This document shows positions 2,233 to 6,585 of a stretch of DNA of 7,167 nt, in pieces (the stretch's first letter is position 1; the number at the start of each line of letters is the position of its first letter). The notes beneath the pieces were generated by a model, which was not told the DNA's origin, did no database searches, and worked only from the letters and a program-made list of their open reading frames with translations. Location of the stretch: positions 1 through 7,167 of the forward strand of contig JAUWKS010000105.1 of the NCBI GenBank assembly GCA_030614005.1, read 5' to 3'. Source of the stretch: Candidatus Heimdallarchaeota archaeon (GTDB taxonomy: Archaea; Asgardarchaeota; Heimdallarchaeia; JABLTI01). A program made the translations under genes and the position numbers.

Positions 2233-3429
2233 ATGACTAAAGCATCAAGTACCCCCGGTAAAAGAGTAGGTATGACAGGCGACGAAGCCGTTGCTAATTC
2301 TATGGCAGTTATTAACCCAGATGTTGTTGCTGCTTATCCGATTACTCCTCAAACAATCATTGTCGAACATTTCAGTGACTTTGTTAATGATGGCGAAGTA
2401 GACACAGAGTACATTACAGTTGAATCCGAACACAGTGCTATGAGCGCTTGTGTTGGTGCCAGTGCCACTGGTGCGCGAGTATTTACTGCCTCTGCAAGTC
2501 AAGGTATCGCTTTAATGTATGAAATTCTCTTTATTGCTTCCGCTTCAAGATTACCTATCGTAATGGCTGTTGCAAACCGAGCATTAAGTGGTCCAATTAA
2601 TATTCACGGTGAATTAACAGACCAAACCGTCTGTCGTGATACTGGTTGGATATCCATGTTCTCAGAATCTGCACAAGAAGCATATGATGCAGGATTCATA
2701 GCTTTCAAAATTGGTGAACATCCTGATGTTTCCTTACCAGTAATGTATGGTCTTGACGGGTTTATTTTAACCCATGCTCTAGAGGGTGTTTATCCTCTTG
2801 ACAGAAAATTCGTTAAAAAATACTTACCTGAACGTGAGATGGTCCATCCAACAATCCCTGGCAACCCAGTTTCTTCTGGTCTTCTAGCTCTCCAAAACTA
2901 TTACATGGAAATTAAGTACCAACAAGAAATTGCTATGGATGCTGCCCGAAAAGTAATTCCAAAAGCCTTCGAAGAATTTGGAGATTTAACCGGACGCTAT
3001 TACAAGAACGTTGAAGAACACCAAATGGAAGACGCTGAAGTTGCTTTTGTTACCATGGGTGCGTTAGCTGGTACAGCAAAATATGTTGTTGATAAGCTTC
3101 GCAAAGCTGGTGAGAAAGTTGGTATGTTGAAAGTGAAAACCTTCAGACCATTCCCAGAAGAGGATTTGGCTAAAGCATTGAAAGGTATCGAAACAATAGG
3201 CGTTATTGATAGAGACCTTACTTTTGGCGCACCAGGTCCAGCTCTATACACTGACATTAAAACATCACTTTATGACCACAAAGAACGTCCACAAGTGCTT
3301 GGTTTCGTTGCAGGCCTTGGTGGAAGAGATGTTGCACAAGATGAATTCAATTACATCTACAAGCAAGTGCTTAAGAATAAAGGCGCTGAAAAATCCGTTC
3401 CAGTAGAATGGGTCGGTCTTAGAAAGTAG
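2233..3429 (+). CDS. porA: Pyruvate/2-oxoacid:ferredoxin oxidoreductase alpha subunit
   Basis: AYPITPQT substrate loop, ESEHSA (catalytic Glu), TASASQG, VANRALSGPINIH (substrate Arg), DGFILTH and LKVKTFRPFP; 398 aa. Confidence 0.97.
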   Translation: MTKASSTPGKRVGMTGDEAVANSMAVINPDVVAAYPITPQTIIVEHFSDFVNDGEVDTEYITVESEHSAMSACVGASATGARVFTASASQGIALMYEILFIASASRLPIVMAVANRALSGPINIHGELTDQTVCRDTGWISMFSESAQEAYDAGFIAFKIGEHPDVSLPVMYGLDGFILTHALEGVYPLDRKFVKKYLPEREMVHPTIPGNPVSSGLLALQNYYMEIKYQQEIAMDAARKVIPKAFEEFGDLTGRYYKNVEEHQMEDAEVAFVTMGALAGTAKYVVDKLRKAGEKVGMLKVKTFRPFPEEDLAKALKGIETIGVIDRDLTFGAPGPALYTDIKTSLYDHKERPQVLGFVAGLGGRDVAQDEFNYIYKQVLKNKGAEKSVPVEWVGLRK

Positions 3430-3444: not shown

Positions 3445-4431
3445 ATGACTTCATCCGAAGAATTAAAGAAAGTTAGAATTCCCCCAGCCAAGGAATTAAT
3501 GCGATTAAAAGATCGCTTGGCTCCTGGTCACAGATTATGCGCAGGTTGTACTGCTGGTACAATTGCTAGATGCGCAACCTTAGTTACCGATCCAGATGAT
3601 GTAGTAATATTCCATGCAACAGGTTGTTTGGAAGTCGCTACCACTGTCTATCCATTTACCGCCTGGCGAGTACCTTGGTTCCATAATGCATTTGAAAATG
3701 TTGCTGCAACTGCAAGTGGTGCAGAAGCTGCTTATCGCTCAATGGTCAAAAAAGGCAAATTAAAGAAAGTACCAGACATCATTGCTTTTGCAGGTGATGG
3801 TGGAACTTATGATATCGGTTTACAATCTCTAAGCGGAGCACTTGAACGTGGGCACGATTTTGTATACATTTGTTATACAAATGGTGCATACATGAATACT
3901 GGTATCCAACGTTCTGGTGGCACACCAATGTATGCTGCTACGACAACTTCTCCTGCCGGTACAGTTATTCCTGGTAAAATGGAGTGGCGAAAAGATTTAG
4001 TAGCAATTGCTGCCGCTCACAAAATTCCATACGTTGCAACCGCTTCCCCAGCAGATCATAGAGATTTGATGACCAAAGTTCGCAGAGCTTTGGATGTTGA
4101 AGGTCCAGCATTTCTTTTAGTTGATATGCCATGCCCAAGAGGTTGGCGATTCAATGAAAAAGACTCAGTTGCTGTTGCAAAACAAGCAATTGATAATTGT
4201 TACTTCCCATTATACGAAATCTACGATGGACGTGAATACGTGCTAAGTAGAATGAGTAAAACGATTGCTAAAAAGCCCGAAAAGAAAGTTCCAGTAGAAG
4301 TCTACTTGAAAGGGCAAGGAAGGTTCAAACACCTCTTCAAACCAACAAAGAGAGATGATTTGATTACATTGTTCCAACAAGCAGTTGACCAGGAATGGGA
4401 ACATCTTCAGAAATTAACTGAAATGTATTAA
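3445..4431 (+). CDS. porB: Pyruvate/2-oxoacid:ferredoxin oxidoreductase beta subunit (TPP-binding)
   Basis: PGHRLCAGC, ATGCLEV, TPP/Mg motif GDGGTYDIGLQSLSGALERGH...NGAYMNTGIQRS and MPCPRGW. All four Cys ligands of the proximal [4Fe-4S] cluster are present. Confidence 0.97.
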   Translation: MTSSEELKKVRIPPAKELMRLKDRLAPGHRLCAGCTAGTIARCATLVTDPDDVVIFHATGCLEVATTVYPFTAWRVPWFHNAFENVAATASGAEAAYRSMVKKGKLKKVPDIIAFAGDGGTYDIGLQSLSGALERGHDFVYICYTNGAYMNTGIQRSGGTPMYAATTTSPAGTVIPGKMEWRKDLVAIAAAHKIPYVATASPADHRDLMTKVRRALDVEGPAFLLVDMPCPRGWRFNEKDSVAVAKQAIDNCYFPLYEIYDGREYVLSRMSKTIAKKPEKKVPVEVYLKGQGRFKHLFKPTKRDDLITLFQQAVDQEWEHLQKLTEMY

Positions 4432-4443
4432 CTATAGATAATC

Positions 4444-4480
4444 GAGAAAAGGTTTAATCCTTTTTCTCCTCTTATTTTTC
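4444..4480 (+). terminator. Hairpin plus pyrimidine tract terminating the por operon
   Basis: GAGAAAAGG-tttaat-CCTTTTTCTC (9-bp stem with one bulged T, 4444-4468) is followed by CTCTTATTTTTC and starts 13 nt after the porB stop. Confidence 0.65.
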
Positions 4481-4536
4481 TATTCAAAAACTCTTGCCGA
4501 GAAGCAGTTGAGACTAAGATTTGGATCATTTAGACC

Positions 4537-4544
4537 TTTTTAAA
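4537..4544 (+). promoter_or_regulatory. Candidate TATA box for the small ORF at 4601
   Basis: TTTTTAAA would place a TSS near 4565-4572, upstream of the GGAGGT SD. Motif resemblance only. Confidence 0.35.
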
Positions 4545-4585
4545 CAAAAAATACTGTTGGTTTTATTGAGAATATGTCTCCTCTT

Positions 4586-4591
4586 GGAGGT
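4586..4591 (+). promoter_or_regulatory. Shine-Dalgarno site of the small ORF at 4601
   Basis: GGAGGT lies 9 nt before ATG 4601. Confidence 0.7.
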
Positions 4592-4600
4592 AAATGAAAA

Positions 4601-4735
4601 ATGATGAAACTGATGAAGAACAAACGATTAACATTGATCTTGCTTTTTGGAGCTATTATATTACTCTGGGTAACAATGACCTTAACAATTGGCCCACCTG
4701 ATGAAGCGCCACCTTTCATAACACCTGGTCCTTAA
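4601..4735 (+). CDS. Hypothetical 44-aa single-pass membrane or signal-peptide microprotein (not in ORF track)
   Basis: Translated by hand: MMKLMKNKRLTLILLFGAIILLWVTMTLTIGPPDEAPPFITPGP, then TAA at 4733-4735. It has a strong SD at normal spacing, a basic N-region, a 21-aa uncharged hydrophobic stretch and a Pro-rich tail. It fills an otherwise empty 390-nt gap. Alternative in-frame ATGs lie at 4604 and 4613. Confidence 0.7.
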   Translation: MMKLMKNKRLTLILLFGAIILLWVTMTLTIGPPDEAPPFITPGP

Positions 4736-4790
4736 AAATTTTTATTTTGGGAAACCAATAACAAAAATTACCGAGGAAAACATGGTTTAG

Positions 4791-4830
4791 GTGCCTTCTA
4801 AATTAGAAAGGCGCTTCTTTTACTTATTTT
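4791..4830. terminator. Probable bidirectional terminator between the convergent small ORF and the Rab-like gene
   Basis: Hairpin GTGCCTTCTA-aat-TAGAAAGGCGC (4791-4814, one bulged A). On + it is followed by TTCTTTTACTTATTTTTT. On - it begins 9 nt after the GTPase stop, with T-rich sequence further downstream. Confidence 0.6.
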
Positions 4831-5414
4831 TTTGCTTCTGCTGCTTCCTTCTCAGCTATCGATTTTTCTGCATTGCCAACCATAGATTTAGTCAAACGAC
4901 TGAAAACTTTCTTGATAGTTTCACCTGTTTTTGCAGATGTTTCGAGATAGGGGATTCTATAGCCTAATTCTTTTGATTTTTTAGAAGCAAAATATTTTCC
5001 TTGAGCTGTTGATACTTGTCGATTTTTCAAATCAATTTTGTTTCCAATGATGAGGATTGGAATAGTTATGCAGTTGTCTTGTACTTCCTTAAACCACATA
5101 TCAAGATTCCCAAAGGAAACCTTATTTGTAACATCAAAAACTATAAGACAACCTAATGCTCCACGATAGTAGAGTGGGCGTATCTTAGAAAAGCGTTCCT
5201 GACCCCCGGTATCCCATAATTGAATTTTTACTTTCTTGCCACCCATTACCATCCGCTTTATTGAGAAATCAACTCCAATGGTCATTTTGTAGCTATCTTG
5301 GAATTTATCTTCTGTAAATCTGAGTGATAGAGCAGTTTTCCCTACAGCACCGTCACCTACGATAATCGTTTTAAAAAGATAATCGAACTGTGATAGCACT
5401 GCTTCTTTGGTCAA
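4824..5414 (-). CDS. Rab-like small GTPase (Ras superfamily; Asgard-type eukaryotic signature protein)
   Basis: G1 GDGAVGKT, G2/RabF1 TIGVDF, RabF2 KIQLW, G3 WDTGGQ, RabF3 RFSKI, RabF4 YYRGA, RabF5 LIVFDVT, G4 NKID, G5 ETSAK. TTG start with SD-like AAGGATGG upstream; no C-terminal Cys. Confidence 0.95.
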   Translation of the reverse strand: MTKEAVLSQFDYLFKTIIVGDGAVGKTALSLRFTEDKFQDSYKMTIGVDFSIKRMVMGGKKVKIQLWDTGGQERFSKIRPLYYRGALGCLIVFDVTNKVSFGNLDMWFKEVQDNCITIPILIIGNKIDLKNRQVSTAQGKYFASKKSKELGYRIPYLETSAKTGETIKKVFSRLTKSMVGNAEKSIAEKEAAEAKK

Positions 5415-5676: not shown

Positions 5677-6585
5677 ATGTCAAACATGGATGATATTTAT
5701 GATGCAGCATTTGTTGGTGCACCTGGTGATAAAATCCTCTTGCCTCTTATGGGGTATCCATCAGAGCGCGATGCAATTTTCATTGCATTAGTAACTGCTG
5801 AATATTTTGGCAGTGATTTGCATGTTTTTCATGTAGAAAGTAAAAACCATGAAGCTGAGCGATTTTTCAAAGAACAAATAATCTGGTTACAAGAGAAAGC
5901 TAAGAAGATGAATGTTAACGTTGATATTATTATTAAAGAACAACTCTTTAACCTCCGACTTCATCAAGTCATTCTAAACGAAATTGAAATTATTAATCCT
6001 AATTTGACTTTTATGATGAGTCGTCGAAAAGGTATTTTTCAGAAATTTAGGGGAAGCATTGCTGAGCGTGTTGCTCGAGCGAGCCCAACTTCAGTAGTTA
6101 TAATACGTTCACCCATCAAAGATTGGACCACTTATGGAGATCATCTTGAACCGAGAAGAATAATCGTTCCTATTGGCACTGATTCTCCCTGTGAATTATT
6201 TGCAACTCAGTTAGCTATTGCACTTGCTAATGCCGGGAAAACCGAAGATGCAGAAATAATTCTTTTACATGTAATTGTTATCCCCGAAACAGTACCAATA
6301 GATACTGCTAATGATGAGATGCTTGTTGACCAGGAACTGAAATTCATCAAACAAGCTGGAAAATTCAGTACACTTCTTCTCTTTCCTATGCAGTCAAAAG
6401 TTCTTATCGGAAGAGATATCGGTCGTTCTGTTAGCCAATATGTCAATAAAGTCCATGCTGACATGGTAGTAATGGGTGTCCCTTATTTACCAAGAAAATT
6501 CTTGGGCTTGTACGGAACCGATACCAATGAAATCTATCATAAGAGTAAATGCCCCGTAGCAATGATTTTCAGAAAAAAATGTTAA
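5677..6585 (+). CDS. Universal stress protein with two tandem USP domains
   Basis: 302 aa with two USP-like halves: KILLP...LHVFHV...GSIAERVARASPTSVVIIR and RRIIVP...IILLHVIVIP...ADMVVMG...GT...I...SKCPVAMI. AGGAG at 5658-5662. Confidence 0.88.
   Translation: MSNMDDIYDAAFVGAPGDKILLPLMGYPSERDAIFIALVTAEYFGSDLHVFHVESKNHEAERFFKEQIIWLQEKAKKMNVNVDIIIKEQLFNLRLHQVILNEIEIINPNLTFMMSRRKGIFQKFRGSIAERVARASPTSVVIIRSPIKDWTTYGDHLEPRRIIVPIGTDSPCELFATQLAIALANAGKTEDAEIILLHVIVIPETVPIDTANDEMLVDQELKFIKQAGKFSTLLLFPMQSKVLIGRDIGRSVSQYVNKVHADMVVMGVPYLPRKFLGLYGTDTNEIYHKSKCPVAMIFRKKC

Follow-up and report, generated by a model that had tools for sequence, protein, structure and literature searches.

A conserved 44-residue microprotein with a predicted exoplasmic proline-rich motif in one family of Heimdall-type Asgard archaea

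Small membrane proteins such as AcrZ, KdpF, CydX and MgtS are 30–50 amino acids long, contain a single hydrophobic helix and are encoded by small genes of their own, which gene callers frequently overlook. Accessory-subunit action is common among small bacterial membrane proteins. Here, we describe a putative protein of this general appearance encoded by a 7167-base stretch of DNA (the window), which is a complete contig (JAUWKS010000105.1) from a 3.6-Mb metagenome-assembled genome (MAG) of a Candidatus Heimdallarchaeota archaeon (90% complete, 33.5% GC). A preliminary description of the window had pointed to an open reading frame (ORF) at positions 4601–4735, in the gap between porB and a small GTPase gene, and had proposed that it is a hidden gene for a 44-amino-acid membrane or secreted microprotein. 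By its likeness to AcrZ, KdpF, CydX and MgtS, such a protein would be expected to act by binding a larger membrane protein. We find that region 4601–4735 is, with high probability, a real protein-coding gene with its own promoter. What is new here is a microprotein family that can be validated by genome comparison, appears confined to one archaeal family and has an invariant motif predicted to be exoplasmic.

Conservation and distribution of the reading frame

The element under study is the following.

4601–4735, plus strand: microprotein gene, a 135-base ORF from ATG to TAA (44 codons plus TAA)

The encoded 44 amino acids are MMKLMKNKR / LTLILLFGAIILLWVTMTLTI / GPPDEAPPFITPGP, exactly as given in the preliminary description, and the start is fixed, since an in-frame TGA sits two codons 5′ of the ATG. 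A six-frame search of related genomes revealed the ORF in each of the other 10 same-genus genomes, with 73–98% amino acid identity, and, with 55% identity and a GTG start, in the sole genome of a second genus (g2) of the same family (f1). Together with the window genome, these make up the 12 family f1 genomes considered below. In all 12, the frame is exactly 44 codons long, contains neither indels nor frameshifts nor stops, and ends at the identical position.

Most differences between the genomes within the ORF are found at third codon positions, and individual genome pairs show significantly more synonymous changes than expected (binomial P from 1e-2 to 7e-5). The pairwise ratio of nonsynonymous to synonymous substitution rates (dN/dS), calculated by the Nei–Gojobori (NG86) method, was 0–0.33 wherever dS was unsaturated and was nowhere near 1, the value that the preliminary description had set, along with frameshifts and stops, as a mark of a non-coding locus. 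When five non-redundant species were aligned, 50% of ORF columns were invariant and none was gapped; in the spacers flanking the ORF, 4–7% of columns were invariant and 22–33 columns contained gaps. The amino acid replacements are conservative, with one hydrophobic residue exchanged for another. The microprotein ORF is under purifying selection.

Two points weigh against this reading. Third codon positions of an antisense ORF (4540–4719, minus strand, 59 amino acids) coincide with those of the sense frame, and the wobble pattern alone therefore cannot choose the strand. In addition, the case for the gene and for its expression is comparative. One could thus suppose that the ORF is not coding and that its conservation is due to a non-coding RNA, a DNA element or the antisense ORF, and the shared third positions do leave part of the wobble signal ambiguous. 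However, the antisense ORF has no start in one genome (L004), and its starts, stops and lengths (44–91 amino acids) vary elsewhere, while the start, stop and length of the sense frame are constant, with zero indels between indel-rich flanks. The conservative nature of the replacements and a Shine–Dalgarno (SD) sequence at the correct distance from the sense ATG also argue against a non-coding element, and a search of Rfam gave no match at the locus. The strand was assigned to the sense frame because of its conserved start and stop, together with the SD sequence and the promoter described below. We therefore consider a non-coding origin of the signal highly improbable, and the coding status of the ORF can be regarded, with little doubt, as settled on comparative grounds. 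A search for sequencing runs that contain this DNA listed DNA runs from marine sediment, cold seep and similar metagenomes but no RNA run, which speaks neither for nor against expression.

Searches with a family profile covered 5.8e9 clustered proteins and, exhaustively, 1.84e9 representatives; they retrieved small proteins of 43–53 amino acids, including about 20 distinct further metagenomic variants. All relatives with a named source come from Asgard MAGs or metagenomes and are annotated as “hypothetical protein”, mostly of Candidatus Heimdallarchaeota. The exhaustive search yielded four small-protein relatives plus one cadherin-repeat protein. The window’s exact 44-amino-acid sequence is absent from a collection of 15 billion proteins. 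The gene is thus hidden, as had been proposed, but only in the window genome, where it was left uncalled: gene callers picked up its relatives, and GenBank and JGI MAGs already list these as “hypothetical protein”. Annotation of MAGs systematically overlooks small membrane proteins, and this microprotein, uncalled in its own genome, is a case in point.

A six-frame scan with the profile, which does not depend on gene calling, detected the gene in 11 of 11 other family f1 genomes and in none of 70 genomes from six other families of Heimdallarchaeia. Among the 399 Asgard genomes scanned, none of the 386 outside family f1 contained it, one spurious match aside: the latter is a hydrophobic segment inside a 582-amino-acid ORF. 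Single-sequence matches in other families at E 0.1–2 likewise proved to be hydrophobic-segment noise, and they disappeared when the profile was used. By these scans, the microprotein is restricted to a single family of Heimdall-type Asgard archaea, f1, in which the gene apparently originated; the locus is arranged differently in other families. JABLTI01 is the placeholder name of an order and family of Heimdallarchaeia (PMC13617573). Family f1 presumably corresponds to the JABLTI01 lineage, as judged from an accession: one of the same-genus assemblies is JABLTI01. In GenBank, some of the MAGs that have the gene with the same gene order around it bear the label Candidatus Bathyarchaeia or Thorarchaeota, probably a taxonomic error.

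No annotated family was matched. Searches of Pfam, NCBIfam and PADLOC returned no families at E up to 10; the best matches in PHROGs (E 0.77) and PDB (E 0.23) were not significant, and the ESM Atlas gave no usable match. The motif string described below was found in no searchable paper, and a literature search on Asgard small membrane proteins retrieved none. The family is therefore one that is already present in public databases, yet unnamed and unstudied.

Expression signals of the microprotein gene

Four islands of conservation mark the sequence from porB to the GTPase gene, i.e., a promoter block, a GAGAA element, a TCTCC-N4-GGAGG element and the ORF, while the rest of the region is diverged and indel-rich. 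The features of the region are listed below (UTR, untranslated region; BRE, transcription factor B recognition element).

4444–4478, plus strand: terminator-like hairpin (4444–4468) plus T tract of the porGDAB operon, found by pattern scan (−8.5 kcal/mol, z −2.25)
4528–4551, plus strand: conserved putative promoter block ATTTAGACCTTTTTAAACAAAAAA (island ATTTAGACCTTTTTAAAYAAAAAA), with 68% invariant columns in the five species
4537–4544, plus strand: TATA-like box TTTTTAAA, 64 nucleotides 5′ of the ORF, preceded by BRE-like bases
4568–4572, plus strand: conserved GAGAA, ca. 27 nucleotides past the center of the TATA-like box, the predicted transcription start region
4577–4591, plus strand: 5′ UTR hairpin TCTCC-N4-GGAGG, whose 3′ arm is the SD sequence, invariant in 11 same-genus genomes
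4586–4591, plus strand: SD sequence GGAGGT, 9 nucleotides before the ATG
4739–4748: T5-A-T4 run after the microprotein stop codon
4771–4778, no strand assigned: conserved block CCGAGGAA of the 3′ spacer, which is diverged and gapped elsewhere; seen in 10 of 11 same-genus genomes
4789–4836, no strand assigned: hairpin (4789–4816; −12.4 kcal/mol, z −1.9) plus T-rich run

As can be seen, the TATA box and the SD sequence of the preliminary description are present, the former within a conserved block and the latter conserved in relatives, as are the por operon terminator and the hairpin with a T-rich run downstream of the gene. The spacer immediately 5′ of the promoter block contains 4% invariant columns in the same five species. 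A positional analysis of TATA sequences across the 33.5% GC genome gave no informative signal, and so the promoter call rests on conservation; from its position and conservation, the block would be an archaeal TATA/BRE promoter. The GAGAA sequence is kept in all same-genus genomes and in the divergent member L024. Given the usual archaeal distance between the TATA box and the start of transcription, the latter would occur near GAGAA, which predicts a 5′ UTR of roughly 33 nucleotides. Genome-wide, SD-like 5-mers peak sharply at −15 to −11, and GGAGG of the microprotein gene begins at −15. Genus g2 and the most divergent metagenomic members also have the same TATA-like block, with an SD sequence at a matching distance.

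The placement of these signals was informative in metagenomic contig L026. There, genes for a flavodoxin, a methyltransferase and a RING-finger protein separate porB from the ORF, and the promoter block, the SD sequence and the ORF are nevertheless retained. Since the promoter and the SD sequence follow the ORF despite the three inserted genes, the comparison indicates that the microprotein gene is an independent transcription unit, as the preliminary description had supposed. A por-operon subunit was also considered as an identity for the product and was ruled out by the gene’s own promoter block, the post-porB terminator and the three intervening genes of L026. In relatives, an equivalent hairpin plus T-run follows porB, with stem sequences that differ.

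On the 3′ side, the T-rich run that follows the 4789–4816 hairpin overlaps the 3′ end of the convergent GTPase gene, and an alignment fold revealed compensatory changes in four of seven pairs of this hairpin across the genus. Region 4789–4836 is probably a bidirectional terminator common to the two convergent genes.

Several further observations were made in this region. The 5′ UTR hairpin would sequester the SD sequence of the microprotein mRNA; its fold (−5.9 kcal/mol) is no better than that of shuffled sequences, it shows no covariation (both arms being invariant), and it is missing from genus g2. For the CCGAGGAA block, there is no ORF, no Rfam match and no evident pairing partner. The insert of L026 (L026:3031–5857), seen in one metagenomic lineage, comprises the flavodoxin gene, a S-adenosylmethionine (SAM)-methyltransferase gene and the RING-finger gene, the last one matching zf-RING_2 weakly. 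Finally, the deposited calls P0003, P0004, P0005 and P0023 use upstream in-frame ATGs and are 47–53 amino acids long. The position of the SD sequence and the TATA spacing indicate that the true start of each is more plausibly the conserved internal Met, which gives 43–44 amino acids. For example, the 53-amino-acid call in L022 (553–714, P0023) begins too early, and SD plus TATA spacing there point to an internal Met that restores the usual length of the family.

Anatomy of the protein and its predicted topology

The anatomy of the microprotein was deduced from an alignment of 22 distinct members, metagenomic ones included. The alignment is gapless across residues 10–40, and a few members differ by 1–3 residues at the N- or C-terminus. 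The layout first described, a basic N-region followed by one helix and an acidic proline-rich tail, was borne out. Residues 1–9 are basic (net charge +4), and members retain 3–5 basic residues at the N-terminus; N7 and R9 are nearly invariant in the genomes of the family. Hydrophobic residues 10–30 have a mean Kyte–Doolittle value of 2.44, and residues 31–44 (GPPDEAPPFITPGP) carry a net charge of −2. An AlphaFold2 model built with the family alignment contains a single helix at residues 8–29 (predicted local distance difference test score, pLDDT, >90) and an extended tail (pLDDT 60–73).

Sequence GPP[DE]EAPP, which starts at G31, is invariant in 22 of 22 members; it is followed by F or L and directly abuts the helix, with no spacer between. 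The final 4–6 residues are variable (ITPGP, LLDSGP, LIGPNP, WSPGP, LDSLINGGG). The hydrophobic segment varies conservatively: LLFG is frequent at residues 14–17, and W23 is replaced by G in divergent members. The ratio of nonsynonymous to synonymous differences per site (pN/pS) is 0.17 for the tail, 0.42 for the helix and 0.49 for the N-terminus. The strongest constraint thus falls on the tail motif. PP[DE]EAPP and looser variants of it have a single occurrence when the 3.6-Mb genome is translated in six frames. Because the motif occurs just once, it is not a sorting tag on a set of proteins, and a shared sorting signal was ruled out.

The microprotein has one hydrophobic helix of ca. 20 residues, and the more positively charged flank of this helix is N-terminal. 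By the positive-inside rule, the predicted topology is bitopic N-in/C-out, with the motif at the outer membrane surface. The only canonical signal-peptidase site would have T, A, S, V or I at −3 (position 29) and invariant G31 at −1; its +1 and +2 positions are Pro in 22 of 22 members. Pro at +1 blocks type I signal peptidases and turns precursors into inhibitors, both for E. coli LepB and for the eukaryotic complex. Since Pro follows the only canonical cleavage site, the protein is probably uncleaved and does not fit a cleavable Sec signal peptide. At alternative sites, the −1 residues are bulky or unconserved. The n/h boundary reads K-R-L, most members have neither G nor A after the basic residue at this position and there is no domain past the helix, which does not agree with a class III signal.

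The reading that we favor, with moderate confidence in the chain as a whole, is that of an uncleaved N-in/C-out membrane microprotein that functions through its outward-facing juxtamembrane motif. A leadered mRNA would be started ca. 33 nucleotides upstream of the gene through the TATA-like block and translated from the conserved SD sequence. The 44-mer would then enter the cytoplasmic membrane, its basic N-terminus inside and the helix, residues ca. 8–30, spanning the bilayer. This would place GPP[DE]EAPP[F/L], which is extended, rigid, acidic and proline-rich, flush on the outer membrane face. Pro at +1 of the sole canonical site T/A/S/V/I-x-G31 would most likely keep the protein anchored. 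Through the juxtamembrane motif, a short linear element, another protein of the membrane or the surface may then be docked or regulated. A signal anchor is suggested because the 21 uncharged residues are modelled as one helix and specific residues are conserved inside it. The topology and the lack of processing are inferences, as are the presence of a partner and its nature.

Several considerations speak against this chain. The topology and non-cleavage are derived from general rules established in bacteria and eukaryotes. A canonical signal peptide can be read from the sequence as well (n-region 1–9, h-region 10–24 and Thr-rich c-region 25–31). The combination of an invariant C-terminal peptide with a faster-evolving hydrophobic part fits a secreted precursor equally well. 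The nearest PDB look-alike of the profile, not significant as indicated above, is itself a signal peptide. The sole membrane protein in the conserved neighborhood, an APC-family permease, is encoded two genes away.

In the main rival view, residues 1 to ca. 29–31 constitute a cleavable Sec signal peptide and a proline-rich 13–15-mer, (IG)PPDEAPPFITPGP, is released. The released peptide would be protease-resistant and act as an extracellular signal, ligand or inhibitor. The n/h/c layout, together with invariant G31 and a small or aliphatic residue at position 29, agrees with the −1/−3 rule, and the low pN/pS of the tail relative to the hydrophobic part is what one would expect of such a precursor. 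On the other hand, invariant Pro at both +1 and +2 would block type I signal peptidases, and the alternative sites offer no better −1 residue. The uncharged stretch, of 21–24 residues, forms an unbroken helix in the model, the hydrophobic segment contains conserved LLFG and W23, the motif abuts the helix directly, and none of the neighborhoods inspected contains a processing or export gene. We consider release of a peptide unlikely; if it does occur, the product would be the first secreted proline-rich signalling peptide of Asgard archaea.

Neighboring genes and comparison with known systems

The remaining genes of the window are as follows.

56–1039: TauE-like permease
1291–1899: porG (porGDAB operon)
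1896–2219: porD (porGDAB operon)
2233–3429: porA (porGDAB operon)
3445–4431: porB (porGDAB operon), upstream of the microprotein gene
4824–5414, minus strand: Ras/Rab-family small GTPase (Pfam Ras 1.8e-54), convergent with the microprotein gene
5677–6585: tandem-Usp protein, on the far side of the GTPase gene
6707 onward: APC amino-acid permease, start only

For the GTPase ORF (4824–5414, minus strand), the called start codon is TTG; translation may in fact begin further in. The order porA – porB – ORF – GTPase (convergent) – Usp is found in 12 of 12 family genomes and in those divergent metagenomic contigs that have enough sequence. L026 breaks the link with por and keeps the side with the GTPase, Usp and permease genes, and the GTPase gene is adjacent and convergent in 15 of 15 loci inspected. 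The Rab-like GTPase is therefore the constant neighbor of the microprotein gene.

Such constancy raises the question of whether the microprotein could be a membrane partner of the GTPase, with the N-terminus (K-L-x-K-N-K-R) or the helix recruiting or regulating it. The convergent arrangement in all 15 loci, which include the most divergent members and L026, and the near invariance of N7 and R9 agree with this idea. The adjacent GTPase is without a lipid-anchor (prenylation) signal, and PMC10933270 contained nothing on GTPase membrane anchoring. However, the idea is based on adjacency: the genes are convergent and not co-transcribed, and all loci come from a single family and are hence not independent. 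Only about nine residues would face the cytoplasm, while the part under the strongest constraint is predicted to point outward. In addition, in a sister family (f2), the best GTPase matches (47–55% identity) adjoin porG without any such ORF; since these counterparts lie without the ORF, the GTPase does not need the microprotein. We therefore regard a partnership with the GTPase as very unlikely. The same holds, in nearly equal measure, for a broader proposal that a lineage-specific, probably recently born gene supplies JABLTI01 Heimdallarchaeia with a product coupled to the GTPase as its protein-based membrane receptor or regulator.

In f2 (L027, L029), a KaiC-like ATPase gene, the gene for the best GTPase match and porG follow one another, the last two directly adjacent and on the same strand. 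A Rab/Ras GTPase is thus linked to the por operon in two families with a differing arrangement, convergent past porB in f1 and before porG in f2. Separately, the contig of divergent member L024 carries a Sec23/24-like gene (L024:7422–8521; PF04811 Sec23_trunk, PF08033) ca. 5 kb downstream of the microprotein gene.

On present evidence, the microprotein joins a large number of small proteins that are conserved but hypothetical, and it answers no long-standing question. Still, it offers a validated example from the archaeal class closest to eukaryotes, with an invariant 8-residue motif, a putative promoter of its own and restriction to one family. A 44-mer is easy to synthesize or tag, which makes it a testable object for studying the organization of Asgard envelopes and membrane complexes. 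It may also serve the questions of whether young lineage-specific microproteins arise beside conserved genes and whether the constant pairing with a Rab-like GTPase has any meaning.

Comparison with known systems sets the microprotein apart from each of them. The cadherin-repeat protein retrieved by the exhaustive search, P0024, is a 2100-amino-acid bacterial metagenomic RTX-like protein, whose repeated inter-domain junction is TLTIGNVDEAAPVITSGP. At this cadherin junction (PF00028, ...LTI.v.DvDEaaPvItsGP), 12 of 17 residues of TLTIGPPDEAPPFITPGP are identical. The microprotein has no cadherin domain, and no similar junction is found elsewhere in its own genome. The weak match was rejected as a chance or compositional one: by our estimate, about 20 such matches are expected by chance in 2.4e11 residues, and the E-value was inflated by five repeats.

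PGF-CTERM and PEP-CTERM signals of archaeosortases and exosortases share with the microprotein a short proline motif at the outer end of a helix and a basic cytoplasmic cluster. The order in the microprotein is basic – helix – motif, the reverse of the motif – helix – basic order of these signals. The microprotein also has no passenger domain, and its motif occurs once in the genome rather than on a set of substrates.

Sec61beta/SecG, SecE/Sss1, Ost4 and class III signal peptides are likewise small and have one hydrophobic helix. The preliminary description had not recognized the microprotein as any of these, and rightly so: there is no profile match to Sec61beta/SecG, SecE/Sss1 or Ost4 in Pfam, NCBIfam or PDB, and the [KR]-[GA] prepilin-peptidase site expected before the helix of a class III protein is missing. 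Orientation and charge layout differ from those of tail-anchored Sec61beta, and proteins of the Sec61beta/SecE/Ost4 type are universal, whereas the microprotein is confined to one archaeal family.

Closer in layout are Sec class I signal peptides and signal anchors, with a basic n-region, a hydrophobic core, small residues at −3/−1 and N-in orientation. In contrast to Sec signal peptides, the microprotein has an invariant Pro-Pro, 21–24 uncharged residues and a would-be “mature” chain of only 13 residues. The likeness to AcrZ, KdpF, CydX and MgtS, with which we began, does not extend to sequence similarity with any of them. Proteins of the AcrZ type are usually encoded in or beside the operon of the partner, whereas the microprotein gene stands alone, and its most conserved part is not the helix but the extramembrane proline-rich motif.

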